A stretch of 64,000 nucleotides of DNA from Alloascoidea hylecoeti. Lineage: Eukaryota. Below the pieces are notes generated by a model that saw only the letters and a list, made by a program, of their open reading frames with translations, was not told the origin of the DNA and made no database searches. Of the stretch, positions 1 to 60,014 are shown one piece after another. Position numbers and translations under genes: made by a program. Position 1 is the stretch's first letter; the number at the start of each line of letters is the position of its first letter. The stretch lies in NCBI GenBank assembly GCA_001600815.1, contig BCKZ01000019.1, forward strand, positions 373,981 to 437,980. The letters run 5' to 3'.

Positions 1-334
1 TTTGAAAATGTTTGAAAATACGATATCAGAGATTCAGAGGTAGTTTAATTATAAGCATAAACTTATTTAAAAGTATCAATTTTGACAGAATAGGTGTAAA
101 CGTTTGATATCAAGCGTCAAATGTAACGTTACAGATAAGCTTAAATATTTTACTATGATATTAATTAATATTATAAATTATTAATAATAATATGATAGAA
201 TATATATTGATGAAAAAGGGTATAGTCATATTTTAAAATATATACTGTTTAGCTTATAATAGCTATGATATAAACTATATTCCATGCCATGATAAGAAGT
301 AACCAAAATAAATACAAAAACCTTTAATTAAAAT

Positions 335-1810
335 TTAACCTCTTGAACCTTTTAAATTTGAACCTTTTGAACCTCTTGAACTCCTTGGTGATTGTTCCTG
401 TTTAACCTGTTGAGCTCTCTGAGCTGCTTGAATTTGTTGAACTTGCTGAGCTTGCAATTTCTGAACTTGATGAACTTGATGAACTTGATGAGCTTGTTGT
501 AATTGAGAATTACGTTGTGATCTTGATCTTGATTGAGAAAATTGTTTTTGTTGTAAAACCATTGAATTTTGATTAACACAAATAATATCATTTGGATTTT
601 CAACACTAATCATACATGCTTCTCCAAGTATTCTTCCAACACCTGAATTATCTGAACTTTTTGGTGCAAAAGCTTTTGAAAACATTTCTCTCATTCTAAA
701 AAAATTTGTTCTAACAACAGTTGGTAATATAACTTTACTTTCTAAAGGTATTGGTTCAACTCTTTGAACACCAGAATAAACTTCTTCAACTTCTTCATCT
801 TCATCTATTGGACCATTTTCTTCTTTTTCAATTGCTAAATGTTGAGCATTTAATAATTCTGTATTTATTGCATGCTTTCTTCTTTGATAATTTGATAATA
901 AAACATCATAAGTTGCTGATCTACCAGGAACTGATCTTTTTGCAGACATTGAATGTGTTTTACAAGTTAATGATCTTGCACAATATTTACCATTTGGTAA
1001 TTTAACACCACATTGAATTTCAATATTAACTGGTGCATTTTTTTTAGAAATTTGTATTGGTTTTTTAGATTTTAATTTTTTTGTTGTTGATGATTCAAGT
1101 TTTTGCTTCCTTGTTTTTTTATTATTATTTTTTTTATATTTAGTTGGAGTTAGATTATCATTATCATTATCAATTTCATTATCAATTTCATTATCATTTT
1201 CATTATCATTTTCATTATCATTTTCATTATCAGATATTGAGAATGCTTTTCTTTTTTTATTTGGAGTTCCTGGTCTTGAAGAACCATAATCTGAATCACT
1301 TAAAAATGCTGATGACATTCTAACAGATTCACTTCTTTTATTATTATTTTTAATGATTTTTAATGATTTTATTTCTTCTTGTTTTAATTGTTGTTTTTTA
1401 ATACATTTTGTAATATGATTTGAAATAACAGATGATAATATTGGTCTTGAACAATAATTACAAATTCTATAATCTAAAGGTTCAGATAAAGGATTTTTTG
1501 ATTTAAATGATGACGTTAGTGTTAATGAAGAATTTGGTAAAGATGATAATGATTTAACATGAGGATCTGATTCTGGAGATGAATGATCTAAATCATCAAT
1601 ATATGAACCAAAATCTTTCCAAACGACTATTTTAGGTGATGATTTTTTCGTTTTATTGATCATGTTGTTTAAATGTGATGGAGTTTTATCAGTATCATCA
1701 TTATCATTATTTGTTTTAGATTTTGTAGTACCAAAGACTTGTTTTAAAATGGAATCGGATACATGAAGTTGTTGTCCTTTACTCTCGATGTTATTATCTA
1801 TGAAATTCAT
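335..1810 (-). CDS. SGF73: SAGA deubiquitination-module subunit Sgf73 / ataxin-7 family
   Basis: N-terminal zinc finger YRICNYCSRPILSSVISNHITKC; SCA7 domain QCGVKLPNGKYCARSLTCKTHSMSAKRSVPGRS; N/D/E-rich and Q-rich low-complexity tracts. Confidence 0.9.
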   Translation of the reverse strand: MNFIDNNIESKGQQLHVSDSILKQVFGTTKSKTNNDNDDTDKTPSHLNNMINKTKKSSPKIVVWKDFGSYIDDLDHSSPESDPHVKSLSSLPNSSLTLTSSFKSKNPLSEPLDYRICNYCSRPILSSVISNHITKCIKKQQLKQEEIKSLKIIKNNNKRSESVRMSSAFLSDSDYGSSRPGTPNKKRKAFSISDNENDNENDNENDNEIDNEIDNDNDNLTPTKYKKNNNKKTRKQKLESSTTKKLKSKKPIQISKKNAPVNIEIQCGVKLPNGKYCARSLTCKTHSMSAKRSVPGRSATYDVLLSNYQRRKHAINTELLNAQHLAIEKEENGPIDEDEEVEEVYSGVQRVEPIPLESKVILPTVVRTNFFRMREMFSKAFAPKSSDNSGVGRILGEACMISVENPNDIICVNQNSMVLQQKQFSQSRSRSQRNSQLQQAHQVHQVHQVQKLQAQQVQQIQAAQRAQQVKQEQSPRSSRGSKGSNLKGSRG

Positions 1811-2408
1811 TAATAAAACGAAATATATAACAAGAAATGATATATATTATTTTTGTATCCTTTTTTTGTGTTTGTGTCTTCGTAGCCACAGTAGTTCAGA
1901 AAAAGTAAAAAATTAATAGTCTACACATACCAAGACCAGATTCAAATTCAAATTCTTTGGTTTTAAACTTATGATTAATCATGTTTAATACAATGAATGA
2001 TGTATTAATCTCCAGTGATAAATAAATAAATAAATAAATAACCCTTTTTAAATAAATAAAAATATTAAATTTTGTTTTTTATTTCCATTAATTATTTCTG
2101 CAATTTTGGTTTTTTTCTCCAATTAATTTTATTTCCATGTGGGTGGACGGGTGTCCGTCTTCTCGAGCATATTTGGAGCGGCCGGCGGGTGCGCATTTGG
2201 CATCCGTGGAGGCAGGCCAATTGGTGTGGCATTTGGCCGGCGCTTTGTGATACATGACATTTTAGTTAAATGATCATAGAGATATCATGAGATATGTAAA
2301 CTTTCTGAATATATTTGATTCCGTTTGCCACTTTTGTTTGCCACCTTTTCTTTTCCTCTCAATCTTACAATTATCTGATTTCAAATTTCAACAATATAGA
2401 ATATTAAT

Positions 2409-3058
<650 letters not shown>

Positions 3059-3534
3059 TCGTCTTATATCATAAGCTTATTACATTTGAAAATCCTTTTT
3101 TTTTTTTTAACTTGGCTTGTGTGTTTATGTTTATCTTTAATTTAGTGAATTTATTTACTTTTATATTTATCAATTATTGCTATGATACCTTTAAATTGTT
3201 TTAATAAATCAAAATATATGTGATCATCATTATCATCCTATAGGATATCGTATCTATACATGATCTTTAGTGTCTATCGGATCGGATAAGCATACAAATT
3301 TGCCGAAGTATACCATATTAAAGGAAATCTAAAAGCTTAAGAATTGAAAAAATCCTTATAATTGCATCATCATTTGAACATTAATGTATTAAGGTTGAAA
3401 TCATGACAAATCGTGAACTATTATTAATAACTTTTATTTTGTAAGTACATGATTAACAAATCATATTATTAAACTGATCATGATCATTATAATTGCTTTT
3501 GATGATTATATAATTTATAGGGACCTCGTTCTAA

Positions 3535-4754
3535 CTACTTTTTTTTTCCAATTTTCCTCGCAACTCCTCTTGCTGGATCCCATTCATAAAGATCATATTC
3601 CTTCTTTTCTTTCACTCTTTCTAACCATATTTCACACTCTGAAAATTCATAAACTGTTATACCATCATACAGTACATCTCCTATTAATATAAACCATTGA
3701 ATAAATGAAAATAAGGTAAGAGCTATCAGTTAAATAACAAAATGTTAGTTTATTGATTGTTTAAATATTGCAACTTGAAAATGCATACCTCTTTTAACTC
3801 TATGAATTTTATACTGATAATAACTCCAGATTAGAACAGCACCCAACCCTGATAAATAAATAATTCCTTTCCGTCTTAGTTTATAAGATTTAGAATCCTT
3901 GATTGAACATTGAAGGGATAGAAATATCCAAGTTATTGTTAAGAAAGTATATGAAGTGAGCATGGTGTTTCGATCAGATGGATCATCAGAAGGAGTGATA
4001 CACACTGAACAATAAAAAATTGTTAATTATATATGAAATATGACTGTAAATGACCATAACTTACCCCATCCAGCATAGGCTATTGTTCTTAAAATACCAG
4101 TAAAAAGAAGATATTTTGAAAGATTTGAATTTCGAGATCTTGCGATTAAGTACCAAGTAAGAACCATAAGAAATTTAGGACCTGTTTAAACCCAATTTCA
4201 ATTACAATTAAAATTGATTGGAGATATTATTATTATTCATGGTTGAACATAATTTAAAAAATCAAATATCTAATACTTACCCATGGTAATAGCAATTGTC
4301 ATTTTGAAAAAGCTTCGTTCTGGATACTTTGCAGATATAATATCAGATAGTTCGATAATACTATAAATAGTTATTATTACATTAATTAAGAATAAATATT
4401 AATTGATACTTACACACCATATAAGGAATATAATTCGCGTCCTCGATGGATTAATGCAATAACCAACACAATGAAAAAAGAGGCTTAATATATGATATAT
4501 CAATGACAAGCATAGCAAAACAATTAGTTTTCGAAATTAGATAGTTTTTTATTTCTATCAAAAACAAATTTGAGGATATATACAAATTATTGTAAATGTA
4601 TGAAAAATCGATACATCTTTTGCATCTATCTGTATCATATATCAAAGTTGGTTAATAGTTATATGATTAACAGAAGAGCAATCAGCAATGATATATAATA
4701 TTGTAATGAATACAAACATACAGCAACTCGATTTTTCGATTCAAATCTCAACAT
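3535..4754 (-). CDS. Stand-alone PGAP2/Frag1 (Cwh43 N-terminal domain-like) membrane protein, 7 exons, 249 aa
   Basis: Exons spliced by hand: 4754-4722, 4629-4584, 4483-4414, 4360-4281, 4181-4065, 4004-3789, 3722-3535 (750 nt, open frame, all introns GT-AG). The product has KYPERSFF..IAITMGPKF, GILRTIAYAGWVCITPSDD, YQYKIHRVKRALTLFSFIQW..GDVLYD, collinear with Cwh43 N-domain motifs (RYPERS..GPRF, GW.Y.TSTDD, QHKVH..GAY..YA.FEW). Confidence 0.85.
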
Positions 4755-5230
4755 GATGGTGAGGAATTTGTGTTTTTTTGGGGGGATTGATGGCTATGTT
4801 ATAAATTATTATGTAATATCGGGAGGATGAATTATTTCGCACATATGTAGTATGCGTAATTAACCACTCTGTAGATAGGCAATTGGTAGCTGTAAGACCT
4901 AATTTTAATAATTTTAATCTCATGATCAACATACGATATTTGTAGATATTACCATGACTAGATGAAAAAAGATTATATTTAGGATGATAAGGTTATATGA
5001 AGGCTATGTATTACGTAAAGGGCTAGGTCCAAATCATGTGTGGCGATGGATCATAATTTATTAACGACAATGACACTTTTGATTTGTTTTTGAGACAACA
5101 TTTAAACCATTTAAATAGAGATCCATATTCCCATTCTTTTTTTTTCCTTCTTCTTAATTGCCTTTTGAAATTTATTTTACAACCGAATTATATCTAAACT
5201 TCAAATATTTTACATAGAGTTGAATGAAAT

Positions 5231-8200
5231 ATGGTGTTTTTTGACGTTGATGCACTTCGATTATTAGAGTTAATCATATCTGGAGTTCAAAGATTAAATG
5301 ATAAAATTGAAAATACAAATGATGAAAATATTAGAGAATTTTCACAATCTGTATTTGTTAAAAATATTTATAATCTTTATAAATTAATTAAATATAAAGA
5401 TGATTTAAAATCTCCAAATTTAAATTCCTCAAATTTAAGAATGGCTTATAATTTATTAAAACCAATTGAATTTAGAATTTCTGAATCTGATGAAATATTA
5501 AGTGAATATGTTGATGATTTTGAAATTAATGATAATAATATTATTAGTAACGATGGTTCTTTATCTCCTGGTAGATCTCCTGGTAGATCTCATGGTAGAA
5601 GGTTAGGTCATAAACGATCAAGGAGTTTATTATCAAGAATGAGAAATAAATTACATTGGAATTCAGATTCAAAACGTCTTGCAAAATTAGTACAAGAAAG
5701 TGAAAAAATGAGTCAAGTATTTGTTGAATTTATGGAACAAAATAAAAAACAATTACAATTAACTAAACTTCAACAACCAAAAGAAGAAGAATCAACAAAT
5801 TTAATTCAAAATTCAAAAAAACAAGATTATGATGATTGTAAAGTTGGATTATTATTACCATTTGAAAGAAATTCTAAATTTACTGGTAGAGAAGAAGTTT
5901 TAAATCAACTTGATGATATATTAACATCTCATAATCCATTACAAACATTTAAAAGAAAATCAATTATATTACAAGGTATGGGAGGTATTGGAAAATCTCA
6001 AATATGTCTTCAATATGCTTATAATAATGAAAAACTTTACGATTCAATACTTTGGATTGATGCAACAAACAATCAAACAACAGATAGATGTTTAAAAGAT
6101 ATTTTTGATGATTTAATATCATATTATACATCATCATCAAAATCATTTAGAAAAATAAGTAAATTATTTGGTATGCCAGAATTACTTGATTGTAATGGTA
6201 ATATTCAAACAGAAAATAATCCAAATAATGAAGAAATGATATCAACATTAAAATTATTAGCATTATCATCAAATCAAAATAAAAAAGATAATAAAATTTT
6301 CATTAATCAAAATCAACAAATTCATAAAGCAATTAAAAATTGGTTATCAAATCCAAAAAATATGAATTGGTTATTAATTATTGATAATATGGATAATCCT
6401 GATTTTCAATTAAATAATTTAAATTTCTTAATACCAAATGTTGATTGGGGTCATATAATAACAACAACAAAATTATCATCATCATTATTTTCAATAAGTT
6501 CAAGTTCATTATCAATTAATAATAGTTCATTTAAAGTTCACGAAACAATTGAAATTAAAGATTTTGGTGAAGAAAATAGTTTTAATTTATTATTAAAAAC
6601 TTCTGGTAAAATTTTAGATGAATTAACAAATGAAGAATTAAAATGTTGTAAAGCAATTTGTTTAGAATTAAATAATCATCCATTATCAATATCAATTGCT
6701 GGATCATATATTTTTGAAACTTGTTGCTTATTTGATGATTATTTAAATCATTTAAGAAATGATGTTGATATTTTTAAACCTGAACGTGATGAAACTTTTG
6801 AAGTTGTTTTTCAATTATCATTAAATTGTTTAAATGATTTTGAAAAAAAAATTTTAAATATTTGTGGTTTTTTAGCAAATGAAAATATACCGAAAATTTT
6901 ATTAAAAGAAATAATTAATGTTTATAACAATGATCATAATAATAATGAAGATGATAATGATAATGATAATGAAATTGAAAATTTAAAAACTTTTAATATG
7001 GCAATTAATAATCTTGATAGATATTCAATGATTACAAGATTACAAGATACAGGATCAATTAGAATTCATCCACTTTTACATAATTGGTTTAATATTCAAA
7101 TGAATAAAGATTTAAAAAAACCAATTTCAAAAATGATTTTAATTGCAATTTATCAATTAACTTGTTATAAAAATAATGAAAGTTTAATTTATGATCGAGA
7201 TTTTTGTTTTAAAATTTTATTACATATTCAAAAAATTATCGAAATGTTAAATACAATATTTTGGAATAGTAATGATAAAGAAATTTTAGATTATTCATGG
7301 AAATTAGGTAATAATATGAATTTTTTTAAACATTATCAAGAATCTGAATCATTATTTACTTATTCAATGATAAGATATGAAAATTTATATCTTAATAATA
7401 ATTTAGATAGATTAAATGTTTGTTATAATTGTGGAATTTCAAATTTAAATATTGATAAACCAATTGAATCAATTGAAATTTTAAAAAAATGTTTAAATAA
7501 TAGATTTAAAATTAAAGATTCATTATTGGAACCAACAGAATTACAAATTAAATATCAAATTGCAAAAGCTTATGAACAATCAAAAGATTATGAAAATTCA
7601 AAAAAATATTTAATTGATTGTATTGAAATAAGTAAAAATGAAATTCAAAATCAAAAATTAGAATTAAAAATATCAAATGAATCAATAAATTCAACATTTA
7701 TGTTAGCAATAAATTATAGTCGTTTAGGAGATTATGAAACTTCAGCAATTATATTATTAAATGGTTTAAAACTTTGTAAAAAAAAATATCCAGGAAATCC
7801 ATCAAATAAATTTACACCAAAATTTTATGATGCTTTAGGTACAATTTTTTTTAAATTAGGAAAATATATGAAATCAGAAAAATATTTAAGAAAAAGTTTA
7901 ACATTATATAAATTAATTTTAAATGATGATGATCATCCAAAATTATTAGGTATTTTGGTTAGTTTAGGTGATGTTTATTTACATGGTGATGAAACAAAAT
8001 TAGCGTTACAAATTTATGAAGCATGTTTAGAAGAATATGATGAAGTTTGGGGTTTTACAAGTTCTGATAGTTTAGATGTTGCCAGAAGAATTTCAGAATG
8101 TTATTTAATTCTTGGTAATGATGAAAATGCAAAAAAAATTCTTGAAAATAGAGATACAAGTTTAAAACATGTTTTAACTGATGAAGGAATTTATACACCA

Positions 8201-9319
8201 ACAAATCTTATTAAAAGACACGATTCTCAAGTTAAATTACAAAGTGTTTATAGGAAACTTTTAAAAAAAGGATTAACAGATCAAAATTTAGATGACAATA
8301 AAACATCATCAATTGTACTTCATGATGGTAGAAGAGCATCTCATACACCATATCCAGGGAGATCAACATCTCCATTAGCAAAATTTAACACACCTAGTTC
8401 TGATCTTCATGAGAAATTACAAACGTTAGAAATTCAAGATTTACAACTTCAAATTGGTGAAAATAATGAAATATTAATGCCATCATTACCTGGTTTAGAT
8501 TCAGTAACAATGGATGAAATGTCACCATTATCACCTGAAGGACAACACATGTTTTTATCAGGTGTATTAAGTCCTGAAGGTAAAGATCATAATGAAAAGC
8601 CTCTTCCTTCATTACCTGTTGTGGGCGGATCAAATAATCTAGAAGATGATGATGTTTTCTTATTTTCTTTTCCATCTATTAGAAGAAATAAAAGTAATCA
8701 ATCGGAACAGAATGATTCTTTACCATATCCAGATAGAGGGACACATGAATCAGATACTCAAAATTCACATGTACCATATCCTAGTTTAAATCTAGAAGGT
8801 CTACAATTGAGTGATTTAGATAATGAATTTGGATTTCAAGAACAAGTGCAACAACCAGTTAAAAGTAGAGCAGGTTCAGCAGTCCCATATCCAACAACTC
8901 AGGGTTTAACATTTGGGGGATATGATTATCAACCACAAGATGAAGTTCAGAGTCCAAGTTCACCGTATCCAACAACTGACGGTCTGAAACTATCTACATT
9001 TAATTATTCCCAAGACGAAGAAGAATCGGATCAACATCAAAGTCCTAGTTCACCATACCCCACAACTCAAGGATTAAACCCGTTTAGATCTGAAGATTAT
9101 CAAACACAAGATGGCGATTCGGATAAAAATAAAAGCCCACCGTATCCAACAGACGATGATTCTCAACATGGGACAGAATCCCGTTCACCATATCCACAAA
9201 TGGACGCAGATGACAAAGTTGATAAAGAAAGACCGGCACTGCCATATTTCAACAGTGAAATGAACATTGAGGATATTTCAGCAGAACAGAAGGAAGCATT
9301 TAACGTAGATATATATTAG
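5231..9319 (+). CDS. NLR-like STAND protein: helical N-terminal domain + NB-ARC + TPR repeats + PYP-repeat acidic tail
   Basis: LPFERNSKFTGREEVLNQL; P-loop GMGGIGKS (5975-5998); ILWIDAT; Walker B WLLIIDNMD; GHIITTTK; HPLSISIAGSYI; IHPLLH; TPR-like units such as YDALGTIFFKLGKYMKSEKYLRKSL and DHPKLLGILVSLGDVYLHGDETKLALQIYEACL. Confidence 0.9.
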   Translation: MVFFDVDALRLLELIISGVQRLNDKIENTNDENIREFSQSVFVKNIYNLYKLIKYKDDLKSPNLNSSNLRMAYNLLKPIEFRISESDEILSEYVDDFEINDNNIISNDGSLSPGRSPGRSHGRRLGHKRSRSLLSRMRNKLHWNSDSKRLAKLVQESEKMSQVFVEFMEQNKKQLQLTKLQQPKEEESTNLIQNSKKQDYDDCKVGLLLPFERNSKFTGREEVLNQLDDILTSHNPLQTFKRKSIILQGMGGIGKSQICLQYAYNNEKLYDSILWIDATNNQTTDRCLKDIFDDLISYYTSSSKSFRKISKLFGMPELLDCNGNIQTENNPNNEEMISTLKLLALSSNQNKKDNKIFINQNQQIHKAIKNWLSNPKNMNWLLIIDNMDNPDFQLNNLNFLIPNVDWGHIITTTKLSSSLFSISSSSLSINNSSFKVHETIEIKDFGEENSFNLLLKTSGKILDELTNEELKCCKAICLELNNHPLSISIAGSYIFETCCLFDDYLNHLRNDVDIFKPERDETFEVVFQLSLNCLNDFEKKILNICGFLANENIPKILLKEIINVYNNDHNNNEDDNDNDNEIENLKTFNMAINNLDRYSMITRLQDTGSIRIHPLLHNWFNIQMNKDLKKPISKMILIAIYQLTCYKNNESLIYDRDFCFKILLHIQKIIEMLNTIFWNSNDKEILDYSWKLGNNMNFFKHYQESESLFTYSMIRYENLYLNNNLDRLNVCYNCGISNLNIDKPIESIEILKKCLNNRFKIKDSLLEPTELQIKYQIAKAYEQSKDYENSKKYLIDCIEISKNEIQNQKLELKISNESINSTFMLAINYSRLGDYETSAIILLNGLKLCKKKYPGNPSNKFTPKFYDALGTIFFKLGKYMKSEKYLRKSLTLYKLILNDDDHPKLLGILVSLGDVYLHGDETKLALQIYEACLEEYDEVWGFTSSDSLDVARRISECYLILGNDENAKKILENRDTSLKHVLTDEGIYTPTNLIKRHDSQVKLQSVYRKLLKKGLTDQNLDDNKTSSIVLHDGRRASHTPYPGRSTSPLAKFNTPSSDLHEKLQTLEIQDLQLQIGENNEILMPSLPGLDSVTMDEMSPLSPEGQHMFLSGVLSPEGKDHNEKPLPSLPVVGGSNNLEDDDVFLFSFPSIRRNKSNQSEQNDSLPYPDRGTHESDTQNSHVPYPSLNLEGLQLSDLDNEFGFQEQVQQPVKSRAGSAVPYPTTQGLTFGGYDYQPQDEVQSPSSPYPTTDGLKLSTFNYSQDEEESDQHQSPSSPYPTTQGLNPFRSEDYQTQDGDSDKNKSPPYPTDDDSQHGTESRSPYPQMDADDKVDKERPALPYFNSEMNIEDISAEQKEAFNVDIY

Positions 9320-9472
9320 GTGCATAGTTAAATAAATAGCAAATAAACGGCAGTCAATTAGCAATATCCTGCGCATAAATGTTATGCGTAGTTTCAGAAG
9401 ACGGCATAAAACATTAAAGTTGTTTTTTGACAGCTCCTCTTCTGAAAAAGATCCAAACCACCAAAACAAAAA

Positions 9473-10189
9473 ATGGAAGAAGAACAAATTATTTCCACCG
9501 ATTCTGGAAAAGAGACACTCATAACAAATACTGCCGGTCTCAATCGTTCTTTGGAAACCTCCTCGGATGTCCATCTGTCCTTGTCCCGTTCGTCCACTCC
9601 TTCCATATCTGGTGCTCCACGTCGTACTAATCCCCCGCAATCTGATCCCTTGAAAACCCCAACCGTCAGAGAATTGGAGGAAGAAGGTGCTCTTATTAGT
9701 GGTGAAGAAGTGGCAATTTCCGATTTAAGTCATGCCCAGCAGGATTATTTGAGTGATGAAGCAAAAGTCAAAAAACAACAAGAATATGGGGAAGAGGCAA
9801 CAGATCTCAAAACGAGTAGAAAATCAAATAAAATATCAATTAAAGATTTATTATCTTCTTCTTCTTCTTCAAATAACTCAAACAACCCAAAAATTAAATC
9901 TCCATTATTAACACCTGAAATTCCATTGAATACTTTGATATCTAGAGATGTTTCAATCCATTCACATGATGATACTCCACATACTCCATCAACTCCAAAA
10001 CGTCCTCCATTAAAACAGACAAGCTCAAGTTGTTCAACTGCAACGGTTCATGATTTACAACAAGAGGGTGCTTTATTGGATGATGCTTATATCAACCCGG
10101 ACCAAGCTGATGTTTATCAAAGAGCCTTGAAAATGGCTGAAGATGGTGTTGTTGTTAATGTTAATTTAGAGGATTCCGACAAAGAATAA
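9473..10189 (+). CDS. Hypothetical disordered protein with a duplicated TV(R/H)(E/D)LxxEGAL motif
   Basis: 238-aa ORF with an A-rich start context (AAAAAATGG); two related segments PTVRELEEEGALI and ATVHDLQQEGALL; no recognisable domain. Confidence 0.75.
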   Translation: MEEEQIISTDSGKETLITNTAGLNRSLETSSDVHLSLSRSSTPSISGAPRRTNPPQSDPLKTPTVRELEEEGALISGEEVAISDLSHAQQDYLSDEAKVKKQQEYGEEATDLKTSRKSNKISIKDLLSSSSSSNNSNNPKIKSPLLTPEIPLNTLISRDVSIHSHDDTPHTPSTPKRPPLKQTSSSCSTATVHDLQQEGALLDDAYINPDQADVYQRALKMAEDGVVVNVNLEDSDKE

Positions 10190-10409
10190 AATGCTTTACA
10201 ATTGTTATTAAAATCAGATATCTCATAATTATAAATGATATTCTTAAAAAAAATAGATAAATAGATAAATGAATAAATAGATAAATAAAATATACTCGTA
10301 AAATGCCTTTCAATGTTCTAATTCTAATTCTAGATCTATATTTTTTATTGTAAGCTACATATATCTCACAACAAATAATAGAATATAAATATTTGAGTAA
10401 ATGCTATAC

Positions 10410-12590
10410 TTAATCAAAGATAGTATCAGCATTTTCGAAAAATACATCTGGTCTTGTGCAAGTACCAAGAGATCTTTTAGCATGACTATTCAATAATGTT
10501 AATCCGTAAGTATAACTTGCATTAACCCATCCAAATCCTTCTGTTGCAACTCCTTTAAAATCTGCTCCTTGATTTCCATATTCTGCATCCACTCTATGAG
10601 GATCAACTTCTCTTGTAACATCATATTTCTCAACAACTATACCATTATAATCAACAAATGCTTTTGTTATAAGATATAACCAACGATAAATAAGACGTTG
10701 AGCATCATCTCCATAACCATATTTAATTAATCCATTCCATGCTAAAATTTGTTGAGGTGCCCAACCATATGGATAATCCCATTGTCTATTTGGACGATTC
10801 AATCCAATTTCTCCTCTTGATTTTTCTGTACCTGCAACCAACCCACCAAACATTTCAAATTTTGGTAATGCAATATCCATTAATTTAACTGCTTGTCTTG
10901 GTGTTGCAACTCCTGCCCACATTGTCCAAAAAGTAGTTGCTGATTCATAATCTGATTGAATTTTTAATTCTGTATCATAATCAAAAAACATTCCTTCTTT
11001 TTCATTCCAACAATATTTATTTATATTATCACGTCTCTTTTTAGCTCTTCTATCCCATATAGCTGATTTTTCAATAATTGTTGAATCATCATCATCCATT
11101 GATAATTTATCATTAAATTGAGTTCTTATTGTATGTGCAATATCAATTTCATATTTATATAATAATGAATTTAAATCAATTGTTGCTAATCTTGCACATT
11201 TTTTTTCTAATCTATAACTTGTATCATGACCTGATTCTCTAACTGCTCTATCATTTAAAAAATAATCATCTAATACTGGTTCTTTTATAATACCATCATT
11301 ATATCTTTGTTGAAAAGTATTTAAATCAATACCATGTTTATCAGCATATGGTTGTAATAAATGAATAAAATGACTTGATTCAGTTTCTGGTGGTATACCT
11401 ATACCATCAGGCCTATATCTTGATAATCCTGAAATTGGATCTAATCTTGGTTCAGAACACCAAACTGTTTTATATTCTTTAATTGCTGCTCTAATTGATT
11501 TTTTTAAAAAAATTTTAGAATTTATTTCATCATGTTTAATTTTTTCATAAACTCTTAAAGCCATATCAGTTAAAAATGGTGGTTGTGAACGACATAAATA
11601 ATAACTTCTATTTGCATTTAAAATTTTTCCATAATGATTAATTTCAAATATAAAATGTTCAACCATACCTTTTGCTAAATCAATTTGATTATCAACTAAT
11701 AAACCAAGAGAAATCATATAAGAATCCCATCCATAAAATTCATTAAATCTACCACCTGGTACAACATATGGTATAGAACGTAAAGTTGTTTCACCAGTTG
11801 TTGGATCATGACATTTCCTCATTGCTAAAGCTAATAATCCAGGTTTATCATTAACTGATTTAACCCATTCAGGTGTAATATTTTTTGGTAAATATTCAAC
11901 TTCTAATTTAATATCAAAATTATTCCTTGATGCATTTAAAAAATATTCATATTGTTCTTTTTCATCATATGGTATATAAATTCTTGGATTATTACTTTTA
12001 GCTTTTGAATCAGTTGCTATTTTAATAATATTATTCGCATCAATATTTCTAATCAAATTATTTAAAAATTGATTTGTTATTAATCTTGATAATCTTTTAA
12101 CTGGATTTTCATTTAATCGCTCTTCACTTAAAATCATTGAATTTCTACCAAGTTTTTTTGCCATTGTTAATTCTTGTAATAAATTTGATAGCATATATGT
12201 GCCTCTTATATCAATTTTATTAAAACCATTTGAATTTGCTGTACCTAATTTTAAAACTTTTGGTCCCGAATCTTCAATTGTAATTTGAAAATTCTTATCA
12301 GTATCTTCTGTATCTAATAAATCTTTCAATGTTTCATCAACATCTGATATTAAAAAAGTTCTAGCATATTCACTTGCTTCCAAATCTTGTGAAGCTCTTC
12401 GACGTAGAAAATCAAGTGAATTGACATTTGTAACTCGACGATCAATAATTGACATTGTACGTGCTCTAGCAAGTTTACTGCCTTTTTTGGTGGTAGCTGG
12501 ATCCGTTTCTGGCCCATAATAAATCTCGGATGATGCAAATGGATCAATAAAACTTGAAGAAGACCTTCTTCTATTAATATTCATCGACAT
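10410..12590 (-). CDS. NTH1: Neutral trehalase (GH37)
   Basis: Ca-binding [44 protein letters not shown]; RRxS PKA sites in the N-terminus. Confidence 0.97.
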
Positions 12591-12773
12591 TCTTATTCAA
12601 TTCAATTCCCGTAAAAATTATAAACCTACCCGTGTAAAAAATAATAAACCAATTCCTTTTTTTGTAATCAAAATAAAGTGGTGAAGATAAAAAACGGATG
12701 GATGATAATAATTACATCATTTATCGCATGACTCCGCGTATATCTCCGTCCGTATGTATATTTCAGTATTAAC

Positions 12774-12869: not shown

Positions 12870-13702
12870 ATGTCTGATTCTGATAACAAAACTCCAGTTG
12901 AAACTCCAAAAGATACTTCAAAAGAAGAACCTAAAAAGGAGGAAGCTAAAATAGATACTTCATCAAATGTATTTGCTTTATTTGGAGGAGGTGCACCAAA
13001 ACCTCAACCAGTTGCAGAGGTAAAGCCAGAAGAACAAAAAGAAGAAGAAAAAGCTGAAGAGGAAGAAGTTGACGTTCATTTTGAACCATTGGTTCATTTG
13101 GAAAAGGTTGATGTTAAGACAAATGAAGAAGATGAAGAAGTTTCTTTTAAAATGTATGTTAGTGTTTTTGTTGATGATCTGACCTTGATCTTTGTGGCGA
13201 TCATGGTGTTGTTCGTTTTTTTACCACCCGCATTTTATTGATTCAATGATTTATAAATACTAACAAATTAATTTTTTTCGATGATTATAGAAGAGCCAAA
13301 TTATTCCGTTATGATGCTGCTGCCAAAGAATGGAAAGAACGAGGAACTGGTGATGTTAAATTCTTAAAACACAAAACCACACACAAGGTCAGACTCGTTA
13401 TGCGCAGAGATAAAACTTTGAAAATTTGTGCCAATCATTATAGTATGTATTTATTATTATTCTTATTTTTTATTATTTATTATTCATTAACTAATAATTT
13501 TTATTTTTAAGTTTCTCCTGATTATGAATTGAAACCAAATGTGGGAAGTGACCGTTCTTGGGTTTATACTGTTACTGCTGATATTTCAGAAGGTGAACCA
13601 GAAGCACAAACTCTTGCTATTCGTTTCGGTAACAGTGATAATGCTAAGAAATTTAAGGAGAACTTTGAAGAAGCTCAAAAATCAAATAATAAAGCAAATT
13701 AA
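12870..13702 (+). CDS. YRB1: Ran-binding protein 1, 3 exons
   Basis: Exons 12870-13153, 13291-13442, 13512-13702; GTATGT donors, TACTAAC and AACTAAT branch sites. The spliced product has [43 protein letters not shown] and LAIRFGN. Confidence 0.95.
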
Positions 13703-42826: not shown

Positions 42827-43447
42827 ATGGACTTCAAATACAAATATTCAATTGATAAAATTCTCTCAGCTTCAATATTAATATTTTTTCATTATACAAT
42901 TGGAACATTTGGATTTATCGCGCCGAATGTTGCAAGTGACGGAAACATTACAAGTTTTGTGTGCGGTTGCAAATCAAACGAATATTCGTGTGGTCAGGTT
43001 AATAATCATATTTGGAAGGTATCTGATATCCAAATAGATACAACTAGTCCTACGAAAGGTGATGTCTTGGCAGTTTCTGTTACCGGTATTCTCACGCAAA
43101 ACTTGACGAGTGAAGTCCTCGATAAAGCATATGTTCGATTAACAGTTACAGACGAATCAACTGATGCTGCTGCCTTTTCTCCAACATTTACACGTTTGGA
43201 TGGCCTTTCCTCTTTTTTATCCTATGCTACAAATTATTCAACTATATCTGAAAATACTACTGGCACTGAAGAATTTAAACCAACTACAATAACTGGTAAT
43301 CTTTTCATACCAAGCACACTTCCTATCGGCGCTTACTCTGCATCATTGTTTGCTTTCATCAATATGCAAGGGACTATTAGTGCTGCACCTACTAATTACA
43401 AAAAAATTATTACCTGTTTTACTATAAAATTCAATGTTCAGGCTTAG
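42827..43447 (+). CDS. Secreted ML-domain (NPC2-like) protein, tandem copy 1
   Basis: Hydrophobic N-terminus; CG..VSDIQIDTTSPTKGDVLAVSVTG; IPSTLPIGAY; ITCF. ATG at 42827. Confidence 0.65.
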   Translation: MDFKYKYSIDKILSASILIFFHYTIGTFGFIAPNVASDGNITSFVCGCKSNEYSCGQVNNHIWKVSDIQIDTTSPTKGDVLAVSVTGILTQNLTSEVLDKAYVRLTVTDESTDAAAFSPTFTRLDGLSSFLSYATNYSTISENTTGTEEFKPTTITGNLFIPSTLPIGAYSASLFAFINMQGTISAAPTNYKKIITCFTIKFNVQA

Positions 43448-43789
43448 GCTTAGGCTCAAATTTATGATTCCGACCAGGAAATAGTTGTTGGTGCTATGAA
43501 AATGTTACAATTGAGATGGGAGATAGTATCCAAATTAAAATATTTATTCTGTATAATCATATTATTTGTCAACGGTATAATCTTGATAAAATAATAACAT
43601 TTTTTATTTTGTAAATATATCCGTGAATTCATTCAATGAATGTCACAGCGCTTAATTTATTAGAAATGGGTATGGGTGTATAAGTTGAATATATAAAACT
43701 CCAAAACTTTTATTTTATTCTTTTCTTTTCTTTTCTTTCTTGACTTCTACTTCTACAAGTAAAAAACTATCATCTTTCTTCAAGTAAAT

Positions 43790-44566
43790 ATGCTTTTCCG
43801 AGTTTCTTTACTTCTCTTTACTTGTACAATTACAAACTTCGTTTCCAGTTTTCACGTGGACCTTGATGAACTCAAACCGCCATCATTAAAAGTTTCAGGG
43901 TTTGAGAACAATAATGATAACAGTCTTGCAAATGATTTCTCCAATATAGATAAAGGATATTGTGATGATGATATTGAAGAACCCGAAGAACTCGAAGAAT
44001 GTGAAGAGTTCGAAGAACCTGAAGAACCTGAAGAATGTGAAGAAATCCAAAATATCGAAGTACCCGTTAACAATTCGAGTTTTGTCTGTGGTTGTCAACC
44101 AAACGATTACACATGTGGTCAAGATAATATTTTCAAAGTTTCTGATTTTCATATTTCTCCAGTGTCCCCAAAGAGAGGAGATACAATCTTGTTTTATGTA
44201 ACAGGTATTATGTCAATGAACTTAACAGACTCAGATTTTGCAATGACTCGTTTTTCTATTTCAAATGCTACCAAACTTTCAGCGTTTCCCGCTGTCTATG
44301 ATCGTTTTGATAAGCTTTGTAACTTTTTAAGTGATACTACCAATACTACCTGCGGTGACAATTCCACGATTACAACTGGGGAATTCCAAGAAACCACAAT
44401 ATTAGGTCATATTTCTGTACCAAATAATTTGCCTAATGGGGTGTATGACTATTCACTTCTTGCTTTTTTAACTTCTTCTGGTAGAGAAACAAATAGAAAC
44501 ACCAGTACTATCACCTGTTTGACTACAAGGATCACTTTAGAGGGGGATGATTATATAAATGGTTAG
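43790..44566 (+). CDS. Secreted ML-domain (NPC2-like) protein, tandem copy 2
   Basis: Signal peptide MLFRVSLLLF; ISPVSPKRGDTILFYVTG; KLCNFL..TTC; VPNNLPNGVY; ITCL; acidic (EEx)n insertion. Confidence 0.72.
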   Translation: MLFRVSLLLFTCTITNFVSSFHVDLDELKPPSLKVSGFENNNDNSLANDFSNIDKGYCDDDIEEPEELEECEEFEEPEEPEECEEIQNIEVPVNNSSFVCGCQPNDYTCGQDNIFKVSDFHISPVSPKRGDTILFYVTGIMSMNLTDSDFAMTRFSISNATKLSAFPAVYDRFDKLCNFLSDTTNTTCGDNSTITTGEFQETTILGHISVPNNLPNGVYDYSLLAFLTSSGRETNRNTSTITCLTTRITLEGDDYING

Positions 44567-44888
44567 TGGCTATTAACTGTGTTGGAGTTTCAACTAACAG
44601 GAATCAAATATAAATATCAATATAAATTTTTTTTCATGATGTATCAATCTTTTTATTTTATTTTTGGGATATATAAGTACTGTTCATTAATGTATCCTAT
44701 AAAAATAATGAGTGATATTAATCTTAGCTTTAGCGCTTAACTTCAATTATGTAGTTGTTTATAAATAGCTTGCAATTGAAATTGTGTAATTTGTGATATT
44801 AAAAGAATCGAAAATTTTAATTTATTCTTTTCTTTTACCATCTACCTCACAAGTTAAAAATTACCATACTTACTTGAACAAATTAAAA

Positions 44889-45548
44889 ATGTTTTTACAG
44901 GTTTCAATACTTATTTTTTACGCACTTATAAATTTCGTTTCTGGTTTTCATTTGAATATTGATGAACATAAACCGCCGTCATTAAAAGTTTCAAAATTAA
45001 AATACGATAATTATAACAGTCTTGCGATCGGTTCCTACAATAAGAATGCATATTTGCATACCCCAATTAAATCGAATATTCACAAATCAAGTTTTGTTTG
45101 TGGTTGTCAACCAAACAATTACTCATGTGGTCAAGAGAATATGTTCAACGTTTCTGATTTTCATACTTATCCTGAGTCCCCAAAGAAAGGAGAGACTATC
45201 ACATTTAATGTAACTGGTACCATGTCAGAAAACATAACTTTTTCAGATTTTCCAGCCTCTCGTTTTACTATTTCAAATGCTTCAGGAGTTTCGGTGACCC
45301 CCATTCTATATGATCGTTTTGACTTTTTGTGTGACTTTTTGGAAATGGCTACTACTGCTAGGTGTGGGAAAAATTCCTCAATTACAACTAAAGAATCTCA
45401 AAAAACTACAATCATCAGTAGAATCAGTGTACTTGATGAGTTACCCAATGGTGTCTACGACTTTTCATTTGTTGCCTTTACAAATACTTATAGAAACCCC
45501 AAAATTATCACTTGTTTAACCTCACGAATCAATTTCAAGGGCAATTAG
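44889..45548 (+). CDS. Secreted ML-domain (NPC2-like) protein, tandem copy 3
   Basis: Signal peptide MFLQVSILIF (ATG 44889); YPESPKKGETITFNVTG; FLCDFL..ARC; LPNGVY; ITCLTSRINF. Closest to copy 2. Confidence 0.72.
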   Translation: MFLQVSILIFYALINFVSGFHLNIDEHKPPSLKVSKLKYDNYNSLAIGSYNKNAYLHTPIKSNIHKSSFVCGCQPNNYSCGQENMFNVSDFHTYPESPKKGETITFNVTGTMSENITFSDFPASRFTISNASGVSVTPILYDRFDFLCDFLEMATTARCGKNSSITTKESQKTTIISRISVLDELPNGVYDFSFVAFTNTYRNPKIITCLTSRINFKGN

Positions 45549-56607: not shown

Positions 56608-59600
56608 ATGGTTGAAGCAACGACTGCAAAAGGTATCCAATTCGAGAATGTAAGTTCCTTGCAATTGATGATCTTTGTCATTCAAGATCTGATTCAATTC
56701 TAACTAACTTTCGCTTCGCCTTTTCTATTCTTATTATTAATTTAAATTTAATATAGACTTCAAGACGTGATGCTTTAATTGAAATCGAAAAACGTTATCA
56801 AAAAGTTTGGGCTGATGAAAAAATCTTTGAGCTTGATGCACCAAGAGATTCAACCCTCTCACCAAATGAACTTCGTGAAAAATATCCAAAGCACTTTGGC
56901 ACAATGGCTTATCCATACATGAATGGTGTCTTACATGCTGGTCATTGCTTTACTTTATCAAAAGTTGAATTCATCACTGGGTTTGAAAGAATGAGAGGTA
57001 AAAATGCCTTATTCCCTCTTGGGTTCCATTGTACTGGTATGCCAATCAAAGCTTGTGCTGATAAATTGGTCCGTGAAATTGAACAGTTTGGGGAGAATTT
57101 TGAGAATGTTCCAAAAGAAGATGAAACTGAAGTTGCAGAACCTGCTAAACCAAAGGCAAAAAGAGAAGATATTTCTAAATTTACTGCTAAAAAAAGTAAA
57201 GCTGTTGCCAAAGCAGGAAGATCAAAATATCAACATGAAATTATGTTACAGTTAGGTATTCCCCGTGAAGAAGTTAAAAGATTTGCTGAAGCTGAATATT
57301 GGCTAAGATATTTCCCTGGTCTTTGTGAAAAAGATTGTACAAGTTTTGGTGCTCGTATTGATTGGCGTCGTAGTTTTATTACTACCGATGTTAATCCATA
57401 TTATAATCGTTTTGTTGAATGGCAAATGAATAGACTTCGTGAATTGGGTAAAATCAAATTCGGTGAAAGATATACAATTTATTCAGCAAAAGATGGTCAA
57501 CCATGTATGGATCATGATCGTCAATCTGGTGAAGCTGTTGTTCCCCAAGAATATGTAAACATTAAAATTGAGGTTTTGAAATTTACAGAAAGTGCTGAAA
57601 ATGTTCTATCAAATGCTAAATTTACTCAGGAAGGTAAAAAATTCTACTTAGTCGCTTCTACTTTACGTCCTGAAACCATGTATGGACAAGTATGTTGTTT
57701 TGTTAGTCCCAAGATCACATATGGTATATTTGATGCTGGTAATGATAGTTACTACATTTGTACAGAGAGGGCCTTTAAGAATATGTCTTTCCAAAAATTA
57801 ACACCAAAACGTGGTTACTATAAGCCTGTTGTTGAAATCAAAGGTAGTGAGTTAATTGGTTCTGAAATTCATCCTCCTCTTTCAGTTTATCCAAAAGTTT
57901 ATGTTCTTCCCATGGAAACGGTTCTCGCTTCGAAAGGTACTGGTGTTGTCACTTGTGTTCCAAGTGATTCACCAGATGATTACATCACTATGAAAGAATT
58001 AGCGCATAAACCCGAATATTACAATATTAAGAAAGAATGGACGGATTTTGAAATTGTTCCGGTTCTTAAAACACCAACCTATGGTGATGTCACTGCTAAA
58101 ACTTTAGTTGAAAAATTTAAGATTAGATCTCCCCGTGATAAGGATTTGTTAGCACAAGCCAAGGAGATCGCTTATAAGGAAGGCTTTTATCAAGGTGTTG
58201 TAGTTATTGGACCATATAAGGGGTCTAAAGTTGAAGATGCCAAGGCCAAAGTTAAGAAAGATCTAGTTGATAGTGGCGCAGCATTCATTTATAATGAACC
58301 TGAATCATTAGTTATCTCACGTTCTGGTGATGAATGTGTTGTCTCTCTTGAAGATCAATGGTATTTAGATTACGGTGAGGAAACATGGAGAGCACAAGTT
58401 GAAGAATGTCTTTCTGACTTAAATACCTTCTCCCCAGAAACACGTAATGGTTTCGAAGGTGTTTTAGGATGGTTGAAAAATTGGGCTTTATCTAGATCTT
58501 ATGGTCTTGGAACTAAAATCCCATGGGATCCTAAGTATTTGGTTGAAAGTTTATCTGATTCAACGATTTATATGGCTTATTATACTGTTTGCCATTTTTT
58601 GCATAAGGATTATTATGGCGCAGAGACTGGTTCTTTAGGTATAAAACCCGAAGAAATGACTGATGAAGTTTGGGATTACATTTTTACAAGAAGAGATGAT
58701 ATTACAAATAGTCCAATTTCAAAGGAAAAACTTGACATTATGAGAAATGAATTTGAATATTTTTATCCATTAGACGTTAGAGTTTCCGGTAAAGATTTGA
58801 TTCCAAATCATTTAACATTCTTTATGTATATTCATACAGCAATTTTCCCAAAACAATATTGGCCAAAGGGTATTAGAGCAAATGGTCATTTACTTTTAAA
58901 CAACGAAAAGATGTCAAAAAGTACTGGCAATTTCTATACTTTAAAACAGATTGTTGAAAAGTTTGGTGCTGATGCTGCTAGAATTGCACTCGCCGATGCT
59001 GGTGATTCATTTGAGGATGCCAATTTCGATGAAAGTAATGCGAATGCTGCAATTTTGCGTTTAACTACTTTAAAAACATGGAGCGAAGAAATAATCCAAA
59101 ACATTGACTCTTACAGAAGTGGTCCTTTAGAAAGTTTCTTAGATCGTTCTTTTGATAATGAAATGAATCAAATCATTGAGAAAGCTTATAAAGAATATGA
59201 TGAAACAAATTTTAAAGCTGCTCTAAAATATGGCTTATTTGATTTCCAAACTTCAAGAGATTATTACAGAGATTCAACTTCTGATTCTCTTGGAATGCAT
59301 AAAGATTTAATTTTAAAATATATTAAAACCCAAGCCTTGTTAATTGCACCAGTTGCACCACATTTTGCTGAATATATTTATAGAGATGTTTTAAAAAATA
59401 AGGAAAGCATTCATAATGCTAAATTTCCTAGAGCTGAAACTCCTGTTGATAAATCACTTGAGGCAGCTCTTGAATATGTTAGAGATCTACAACGTTCAAT
59501 TCGTGAAGCTGAAGGATTATCTGAAAAGAAGCAAAAGAAAGGACATGGTATTCAACTTGATACTACAAAACCGGTCGAATTAACAATCTTCATTTCTCCC

Positions 59601-60014
59601 TCTTTTCCAGTTTGGCAAGATGAATATATTGAACTTGTTAGAGGATCATTTGATAAGTTATCATTAACATTTGATAAAGATTTACCAAAAAAAGTATCAA
59701 AATTAGGTGATATGAGACGTGGTATGCCATTCGTTAACTTTTTAAAACAAAGACTTCAAAAAGAATCTCCAGAAGTGGTTTTTAATAGAAAACTTATTTT
59801 CAATGAAATTGATACAATCAAACAAGTATTACCATTACTTAAGCGAAGTCCTCCAAAATCAACAGTAGAAAAATTAAGTGTTTATGCATTGAAAAGTGAT
59901 AATCAGGTTGCTGTTGATATTATTAGTGGTGAAGAAATTGAAGTGACCGCCCCTGCTAAAACGATTGAGGGTGCTGTTCCAGGAAATCCAGCCGTTTTAT
60001 TGAAGAATATATAA
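56608..60014 (+). CDS. CDC60: Cytosolic leucyl-tRNA synthetase, 2 exons
   Basis: Exon 1 56608-56649; intron 56650-56756 (GTAAGT..AACTAAC..TAG). The junction gives ENTSRRDALIEIEKRYQKVW; YPYMNGVLHAGH (HIGH) and KMSKS motifs present. Confidence 0.97.

Follow-up and report, generated by a model that had tools for sequence, protein, structure and literature searches.

What is a 346-residue tail carrying eight Pro-Tyr-Pro (PYP) motifs doing at the end of a receptor-like gene, and what is such a gene doing in a budding yeast? Both questions are raised by a 64,000-nucleotide stretch of Alloascoidea hylecoeti contig BCKZ01000019.1 (positions 373,981 to 437,980; hereafter the window, whose first base is position 1), in which a single open reading frame (ORF), P0001, encodes a protein resembling the NOD-like receptors (NLRs; NOD, nucleotide-binding oligomerization domain) of fungi. 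An earlier annotation of the bare letters (the sequence-only reading) had proposed that the tail is a multivalent docking platform linking the NLR to the ESCRT machinery of endosomal sorting or to membrane-repair machinery, or else to condensate formation. Our analysis favors a lineage-specific multivalent docking tail on an NLR, to which we assign a probability of about 0.55.

P0001 is an NB-ARC/tetratricopeptide repeat (TPR) NLR-like protein, possessing both the NOD and the repeats by which this fungal class is recognized (Table 1). A Pfam scan of the ORF returned NB-ARC at the cut-off (23.5 bits) and DUF7779 below it, together with the repeat families TPR_12, TPR_8 and TPR_10. The P-loop GMGGIGKS lies at 5975-5998, and the segments GMGGIGKSQ and WLLIIDN align with those of the relatives described below; we take WLLIIDN to be the Walker-B-like motif, and HPL and IHPLLH to be further NB-ARC motifs. 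AlphaFold2 models built on 72-73 relatives gave a confident NOD, a helical N-terminal domain of middling confidence and, in the model of aa 620-1362, a TPR block with predicted local distance difference test (pLDDT) values of 79-98. The best Foldseek matches of the predicted NOD fold were NRC2, Apaf-1 and CED-4 (E 4e-10 to 2e-9).

The N-terminal domain (aa 1-200) has no Pfam match. Its identity as a HeLo domain was considered and is unsupported: 5 of 300 shuffled sequences outscored the real one on the HeLo profile of the relatives, and the hhalign probability for HeLo was 1.7%. Within this domain a 12-base tandem repeat at 5563-5599 (3.1 copies) encodes SPGRSPGRSHGR in a disordered loop, directly followed by HKRSRS, which presumably fits the HxRxxS kinase consensus.

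The host lineage was read from the window itself. Its leucyl-tRNA synthetase (LeuRS; 56757-60011) is 65-69% identical to the closest sequences matched, which come from Geotrichum, Blastobotrys, Nadsonia, Magnusiomyces and Trichomonascus, genera that we take to belong to Saccharomycotina, and all 49 species-named rows among the best 120 LeuRS matches were from Saccharomycotina. By Pfam, the genes flanking the NLR are ordinary, encoding an SCA7-domain protein, an Arf and a neutral trehalase. Because the LeuRS matches Saccharomycotina and the flanking genes are ordinary, the NLR gene, judged from these matches, is chromosomal in a deep-branching budding yeast.

The available text of Dyrka et al. 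(PMC4986451) reports no NLR in 38 Saccharomycotina genomes, the accessible part of a review (PMC5658179) agrees that NLRs are absent from Saccharomycotina, and a 2022 preprint, in the portion available, finds none in unicellular yeasts (10.1101/2022.03.16.484565). In those same portions the surveys link NLRs to multicellularity (PMC4986451; 10.1101/2022.03.16.484565). Our own search of the literature, which had subscription journals outside its coverage, found neither a yeast NLR nor a fungal PYP tail. Set among ordinary housekeeping genes of a yeast, this intact NB-ARC/TPR gene is a counter-example to the reported absence of NLRs from yeasts, and the presence of an NLR in a budding yeast is a larger surprise than its tail.

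All nine motifs listed in the sequence-only reading, eight PYP and one LPYF, were found exactly as written and their positions were verified. In 100,000 shuffles of residues 1030-1362 the mean number of PYP was 0.15 and the maximum 4, and the other 18 window ORFs of at least 150 aa contained none. The three units of 26-30 aa are genuine tandem duplications, as had been claimed: they were recovered as DNA repeat families D1, D3 and D8, and their pairwise identities are 43-67% in protein and 57-72% in DNA. Beyond aa 1165, six of the seven PY[PF] spacings measure 16-30 aa and the other 37 aa. CTG codons occur at aa 1252 and 1337 (listed for the region of 8939-8953 and 9002-9019); the codon at aa 1252 is aligned with TTA (Leu) in both sister units, consistent with CUG being read as Leu in this yeast.

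The tail follows the TPRs in frame with them and with the NB-ARC module, and it is acidic (57 Asp and Glu vs. 22 Lys and Arg in 333 aa). That it is disordered held for most of its length; its start, however, lies about 20 codons upstream of the earlier boundary at 8340 (at about nt 8279, after the capping helix), and one helix is predicted inside it, at aa 1057-1080. The pLDDT of the tail is otherwise mostly below 50. Because the tail had no alignment depth, these low values are not independent proof of disorder; the composition agrees with them. Comparison of the tail with Pfam and with PDB sequences gave no match.

Table 1. Coordinates of the NLR-like gene, its domains and the motifs of its tail, in window positions
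Feature	Position	Strand	Basis
Whole NLR-like ORF P0001, 1362 aa	5231..9319	+	single frame without stop
N-terminal helical domain, putative effector (aa 1-200)	5231..5830	+	mostly helical, pLDDT ~40-77
NB-ARC module and winged helix (aa ~205-635)	5843..7135	+	Pfam, alignment, Foldseek
About 7 diverged TPR-type helix pairs (aa 683-978)	7277..8164	+	TPR_12 E 2e-15; 14 helices
Capping helix after TPRs (aa 990-1016)	8198..8278	+	AlphaFold2 model
Acidic, Ser/Pro-rich, mostly disordered tail (aa 1017-1362, 346 residues)	8279..9316	+	composition, pLDDT
PYP 1 (TPYP, aa 1040)	8348..8356	+	motif scan
KPLPSLP (aa 1123-1129)	8597..8617	+	one residue off Pbs2 KPLPPLP
PYP 2 (LPYP, aa 1165)	8723..8731	+	motif scan
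PYP 3 (VPYPSL, aa 1182), sole YPxL match (YPSL, aa 1183)	8774..8788	+	motif scan
Tandem unit 1, PYPTTQGL...SPSS, 26 aa (PYP aa 1219, preceded by V)	8885..8962	+	repeat families, alignment
Tandem unit 2, PYPTTDGL...SPSS, 30 aa (PYP aa 1245, preceded by S)	8963..9052	+	repeat families, alignment
Tandem unit 3, PYPTTQGL...SP, 29 aa (PYP aa 1275, preceded by S)	9053..9139	+	repeat families, alignment
PYP 7 (aa 1304, nt 9140), sole PPYP	9137..9148	+	motif scan
PYP 8 (SPYP, aa 1320)	9188..9196	+	motif scan
Degenerate LPYF (aa 1338), ends second class-I-type KxxPxxP	9242..9250	+	motif scan

A tail of this kind could be a separate gene joined to the NLR by mis-assembly, or could be absent from the mature mRNA. 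Two contigs, X1 record 5 and X2 record 13, come from two samples of two studies, and the window may derive from either; both read across 6989-10600 without a gap or a differing base. An assembly error, which the sequence-only reading had allowed for, is unlikely because the contigs of two samples cross the TPR-tail junction without a difference. Over 8259-10600 an independent wood-decay metagenome contig (X4) differs from the window by ten substitutions, is ungapped and keeps all motifs; it begins too near the junction to serve as a bridge between the TPRs and the tail. The tail frame has no stop in 346 codons, compared with 12-48 in the other five frames, it is intact in all three samples, and its GC content by codon position is 0.53/0.39/0.15.

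Base composition offers the one argument for a join, in that the synonymous third-position GC content (GC3) of the tail (47/340) exceeds that of the preceding ORF (23/988) and comes near the 0.25 of the next gene. Calculated per 100 codons, however, GC3 climbs smoothly (0.00, 0.04, 0.06, 0.09, 0.17, 0.27) with no step, and a splice-signal scan found no canonical intron signals within the ORF at 5231-9319. The gradual rise speaks against a sharp fusion junction and has the look of a regional trend, not of a seam between fused genes; an old fusion may still lie at the origin of the tail. We regard an artefact of assembly or splicing as very improbable, and the tail is presumably translated as part of the receptor. 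In a metatranscriptome (X7), three partial matches of 31-37 bases each carry no weight for or against expression. Across 300-12600 the window shows strong local variation in base composition, with GC3 of 0.05 in the SCA7 gene, 0.02 in the NLR body, 0.05 in the trehalase and 0.15-0.25 in the Arf gene and the downstream ORF P0002, and a smooth rise over the NLR tail.

No orthologue of the NLR was found by a word-index search, by phmmer over 1.84 billion proteins, or by searches of small proteins, metagenome contigs and NLR loci. The word-index search gave seven matches at 20-42% identity, and among the best 150 phmmer matches the top identities were 23-42%; ten phmmer matches looked up included six from Rhizina undulata, one from Ktedonobacteria and one from Hydra. 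The nearest species-named relatives are the Rhizina undulata proteins (e.g., KAL7271330.1 and KAL7269006.1), which share with P0001 the order N-domain, NB-ARC, DUF7779 and TPR_12/10 at 21-31% identity. Unlike these and other fungal NB-ARC/TPR NLRs, P0001 comes from a Saccharomycotina host, its TPRs are fewer and more diverged, and its N-domain is not recognizably HeLo. A HeLo domain was present in five of the seven relatives scanned.

In a NOD tree, P0001 sat on a long branch (1.06) within a group of 31 members (support 0.90) that also holds the six named Rhizina proteins; the tree took 143 of 156 sequences, 13 having been dropped for short or over-long matches, and contains few named rows. 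The best match, P0019 (an NCBI protein of 1045 aa from an N-terminally truncated call; E 7e-51), is a weak sister of P0001 (0.53) and has extra residues inserted at the matching place, ahead of the Walker-B region. It differs in its overall identity of about 24-27%, in having many more TPRs, and in ending right after them without a tail.

The statement that fungal NLRs usually end at their sensor repeats holds in this set, where a median of 27 residues follows the last detected repeat. Such an ending is not absolute in the class, and P0001 departs from it with 346 aa. The local repeat profile found just one repeat in P0001, so that the tail lengths of the relatives are upper bounds for diverged proteins. 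Among the 137 relatives with a detected repeat, nine have at least 100 residues beyond it, none of them with PYP, and across 162 relatives PYP occurs once in 15 and twice in none. One of the nine long C-termini, in the phmmer match P0036, holds a protein kinase domain after the TPRs, which may be a genuine fusion at the C-terminus or the product of joined gene models.

Searches with the tail itself gave a similar picture. None of 2745 candidates among proteins 30-748 aa long was a homologue, nor was any of 103 pattern matches in metagenome contigs; the ESM Atlas yielded none either, and no tail-like sequence occurs elsewhere in the window. Eighty metagenome NLR loci yielded no tail match, with at most two PYP per frame segment in all of them. 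In none of the best 150 phmmer matches did the strongest segment fall on the PYP motifs' part of the protein, full-length proteins not having been searched with the tail alone.

Comparison of the three tandem units with one another provides the main evidence on selection. Summed over the three pairs, the eight codons of the PYPTTxGL core carry 13 synonymous differences over 21.6 sites (proportion of synonymous differences, pS, 0.60) and 4 non-synonymous differences over 50.4 sites (the corresponding proportion, pN, 0.08). The linkers, obtained by subtraction, carry 14.6 synonymous differences over 32.6 sites (pS 0.45) and 50.4 non-synonymous differences over 129.4 sites (pN 0.39). Judged by silent sites, then, the core is at least as old as the linkers, yet it is much better kept as protein, which is moderate evidence that the motif has been kept by selection. 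The pattern suggests that PYPTTxGL is retained at the protein level, the linkers behaving as if neutral. When neutral evolution was simulated and any eight-codon window admitted, no more than 4 non-synonymous together with 13 or more synonymous differences were seen in 1-8 of 4000 runs per setting; no more than 4 non-synonymous differences, whatever the synonymous count, were seen in 25-347 of 4000. The evidence is only moderate because the simulation is crude (a star tree without indels, with unit 1 as the stand-in ancestor) and because the locus was chosen from a genome scan for motifs that stood out.

Several further points weigh against selection for docking. The core was picked for its likeness, and the three pairs are non-independent. 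The synonymous share of the whole units was reached in 355-1030 of 4000 neutral runs (9-26%) and is not significant. With no orthologue there is no between-species test, and no complete known motif is repeated in the tail. The X4 contig adds four tail substitutions (N1053S, one silent, T1278A and N1358T), three of them non-synonymous, compared with two of two synonymous in the NLR body. T1278A falls within a PYPTTQGL core and shows that the core tolerates some change; PYP is untouched by all four.

Much of this would be expected of a neutral or nearly neutral extension, in which a tolerated disordered sequence lengthened through tandem duplication, leaving the PYP motifs as no more than what can still be recognized of the copied unit. 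The similarity of pN and pS in the linkers, the lack of a homologue in any search made, and TPRs that are few and diverged relative to those of the relatives, as in a gene under relaxed constraint, point the same way. What such an extension does not account for is a core whose synonymous sites are at least as diverged as those of the linkers while its residues are kept, outer PYP copies that have almost nothing in common beyond PYP, and a frame that has stayed open in three samples. We consider it unlikely, although it is the strongest of the alternatives; if the tail is neutral, it is a local curiosity only. As it stands, the tail gives a known receptor class an architecture seen once only, one that shows moderate signs of selection.

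The identity of a docking partner was approached through the motifs. A scan of the tail gave one YPxL and one PPYP, and no LYPx(1-3)L, PPxY, P[TS]AP, PxPGF or LPxY, the last of which we take to be an Rsp5 WW-ligand variant. Given eight PYP, the chance of one extending to YPxL is about 0.5-0.6, and so is that of one being PPYP. The suggested binding of Bro1/ALIX-family V domains through YPxL comes down to this single YPSL at chance level. The suggested PPYP(x)nYP ligand of ALG-2/Pef1 has no complete copy, the gaps from PYP to the next YP being 123, 15, 35, 24, 28, 27 and 14 residues where an ALG-2 type-1 motif needs 4. Vps23 UEV and Rsp5 WW domains likewise lack their P[TS]AP and PPxY or LPxY ligands. 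On motif content, Bro1/Rim20, Vps23 and Rsp5 appear poorly supported as tail partners. The YPxL/I of Rim101, which concerns Rim20, and the LYPXnL late domains, which concern the ALIX V domain, resemble the tail in the YPSL at aa 1183; in the tail this motif is unrepeated, and the tandem units carry Thr where Leu is expected.

Pef1, the ALG-2 homologue, appears to be the best named candidate, ahead of Bro1/Rim20, Vps23 and Rsp5, though judged by its motifs still a rather improbable one. The ALG-2 type-1 motif (PPYPx4YP; ALIX, PLSCR3) and Toxoplasma GRA8, whose three tandem ALG-2-binding elements are complete and Pro-rich in the available text (PMC13419437), resemble the tail in having a PYP core, in its repetition within a disordered region and in possible avidity. 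The NLR tail differs in having no second YP at the right distance, a single PPYP, and flanks that are acidic and Ser/Thr-rich rather than Pro-rich. The pocket-1 half-site (PPYP or PYP/PXYP) is present in the form of eight PYP, one of them a PPYP. According to the accessible part of an ALG-2 review, PYP may take the place of PPYP with a loss of affinity, for which a number of suboptimal motifs together may compensate (PMC5037681). It is because PYP is such a reported weak half-site that Pef1 stays among the candidates.

Recruitment of Pef1 or of Bro1/Rim20 would couple the NLR to ESCRT or membrane repair, and is largely a sub-case of the docking reading. Fungal Pef1 gathers at sites of membrane damage, in a source whose available text does not state the partner motif (PMC13232526). 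The nearest named relatives include HeLo-bearing NLRs, and HeLo domains attack membranes, as the available portion of the preprint describes (10.1101/2022.03.16.484565); the N-domain of P0001, however, has no support as HeLo from its profile score. In the available parts of the literature, yeast homologues of ALIX and Sec31 are without ALG-2-type motifs (PMC5037681), Ca2+-free yeast Pef1 binds Sec31, at its Pro-rich region (PMC3394733; PMC5037681), and no fungal protein is described as binding Pef1 in the type-1 manner. Taken with the motif counts above, these points leave the coupling to ESCRT or membrane repair improbable.

The motifs might instead serve the receptor itself, with acidic PYP units folding back into the groove of its TPRs, where, as pseudo-ligands or decoys, they would set the activation threshold. 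TPR grooves bind extended peptides, and TPRs of the kinesin-light-chain type bind Tyr-acidic motifs; the repeats of P0001 match TPR_12 and TPR_10, and the acidic tail is tethered to them in cis. In the single-chain model of aa 620-1362, which had no alignment depth over the tail, no PYP unit gained confidence, almost all remaining below a pLDDT of 50. A complex prediction for the TPR region (aa 674-1019) and part of the tail (aa 1212-1312), made with no alignment and with controls not folded, scored 0.24 vs. a mark of 0.34. A ligand in cis would not need eight copies, and we consider such regulation quite unlikely.

Other patterns in the tail would fit a phospho-regulated scaffold, in which KPLPSLP and S/T-P sites tie the NLR to Sho1/mitogen-activated protein kinase signaling and the PYP motifs lie within repeated SPxSPYP phosphosites. 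The putative SH3 motif KPLPSLP shares six of seven residues with Pbs2 KPLPPLP, which binds the Sho1 SH3 domain in the text available to us (PMC12505296). A pattern of this shape, defined post hoc, appeared in 0.025% of shuffles, and the tail has 12 S/T-P sites. KPLPSLP had escaped the sequence-only reading. Two matches, at aa 1123 and 1332, were found to [RK]xxPxxP (2.1% of shuffles), which we take to be the class I SH3 ligand consensus, and FSFP at aa 1145-1148 (8.7% of shuffles) presumably fits a kinase-docking pattern. All these patterns were picked after the fact, however, and lone motif matches in disordered regions are often false. KPLPSLP is present as a single copy, its change of Pro to Ser removes one of the motif's own prolines, and the conservation of TTxGL is left unexplained. 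We give the scaffold marginally less credence than the cis regulator.

The docking reading thus retains its multivalent tail, for which the conserved core with diverged synonymous sites and the early ending of the relatives speak, and loses the partners first named for it, which the motifs do not support. In the sequence of events that we favor, a deep-branching budding yeast would have had an NLR-like switch of the NB-ARC/TPR type that gained a long disordered C-terminal tail in this lineage. Tandem duplication would have multiplied one short Pro-Tyr-Pro motif, which selection then kept as the linkers drifted. Each PYP(TTxGL) may bind a partner pocket weakly, strong binding needing several copies on flexible acidic linkers. 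Because NLRs oligomerize on activation, dozens of motifs would be presented together on the active wheel, and the tail would convert activation state into partner recruitment.

To our knowledge, how most fungal NLRs signal and are restrained is not known in the field. A repeated, apparently selected motif beyond the sensor is a ready bait for an NLR partner, with a built-in Y>A control, and the PYP tail might define a new short linear motif. A bolder combination would have a budding yeast keep or acquire a working NLR whose PYP tail, on oligomerization, recruits the Ca2+ sensor Pef1 and membrane repair as a brake on damage by the N-domain. This seems to us doubtful, more so than Pef1 binding by itself; if true, a subphylum reputed to lack NLRs would possess an NLR pathway, and fungal Pef1 a PYP-type ligand.

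The ORF beginning 153 bases past the NLR stop, P0002 (9473-10189, + strand), is a Ser/Pro-rich orphan of 238 aa, without a Pfam match and alone in its cluster, with two copies of TVx[DE]Lx[EQ]EGAL[IL] (EGAL at aa 71 and 198). Farther along the window, three adjoining ORFs of 206-258 aa at 42827-45545 (+) probably form a tandem cluster of lipid-binding ML-domain genes: the last matches Pfam ML (E1_DerP2_DerF2), and the starts of the second and third resemble each other (LLLF/ILIF...NFVS.FH...DE.KPPSLKVS). At 12870-13290 (+) lies the start of a gene split by an intron of typical budding-yeast form, with a GTATGT donor and a TACTAAC branch site (13258); we take it to be Yrb1/RanBP1-like.

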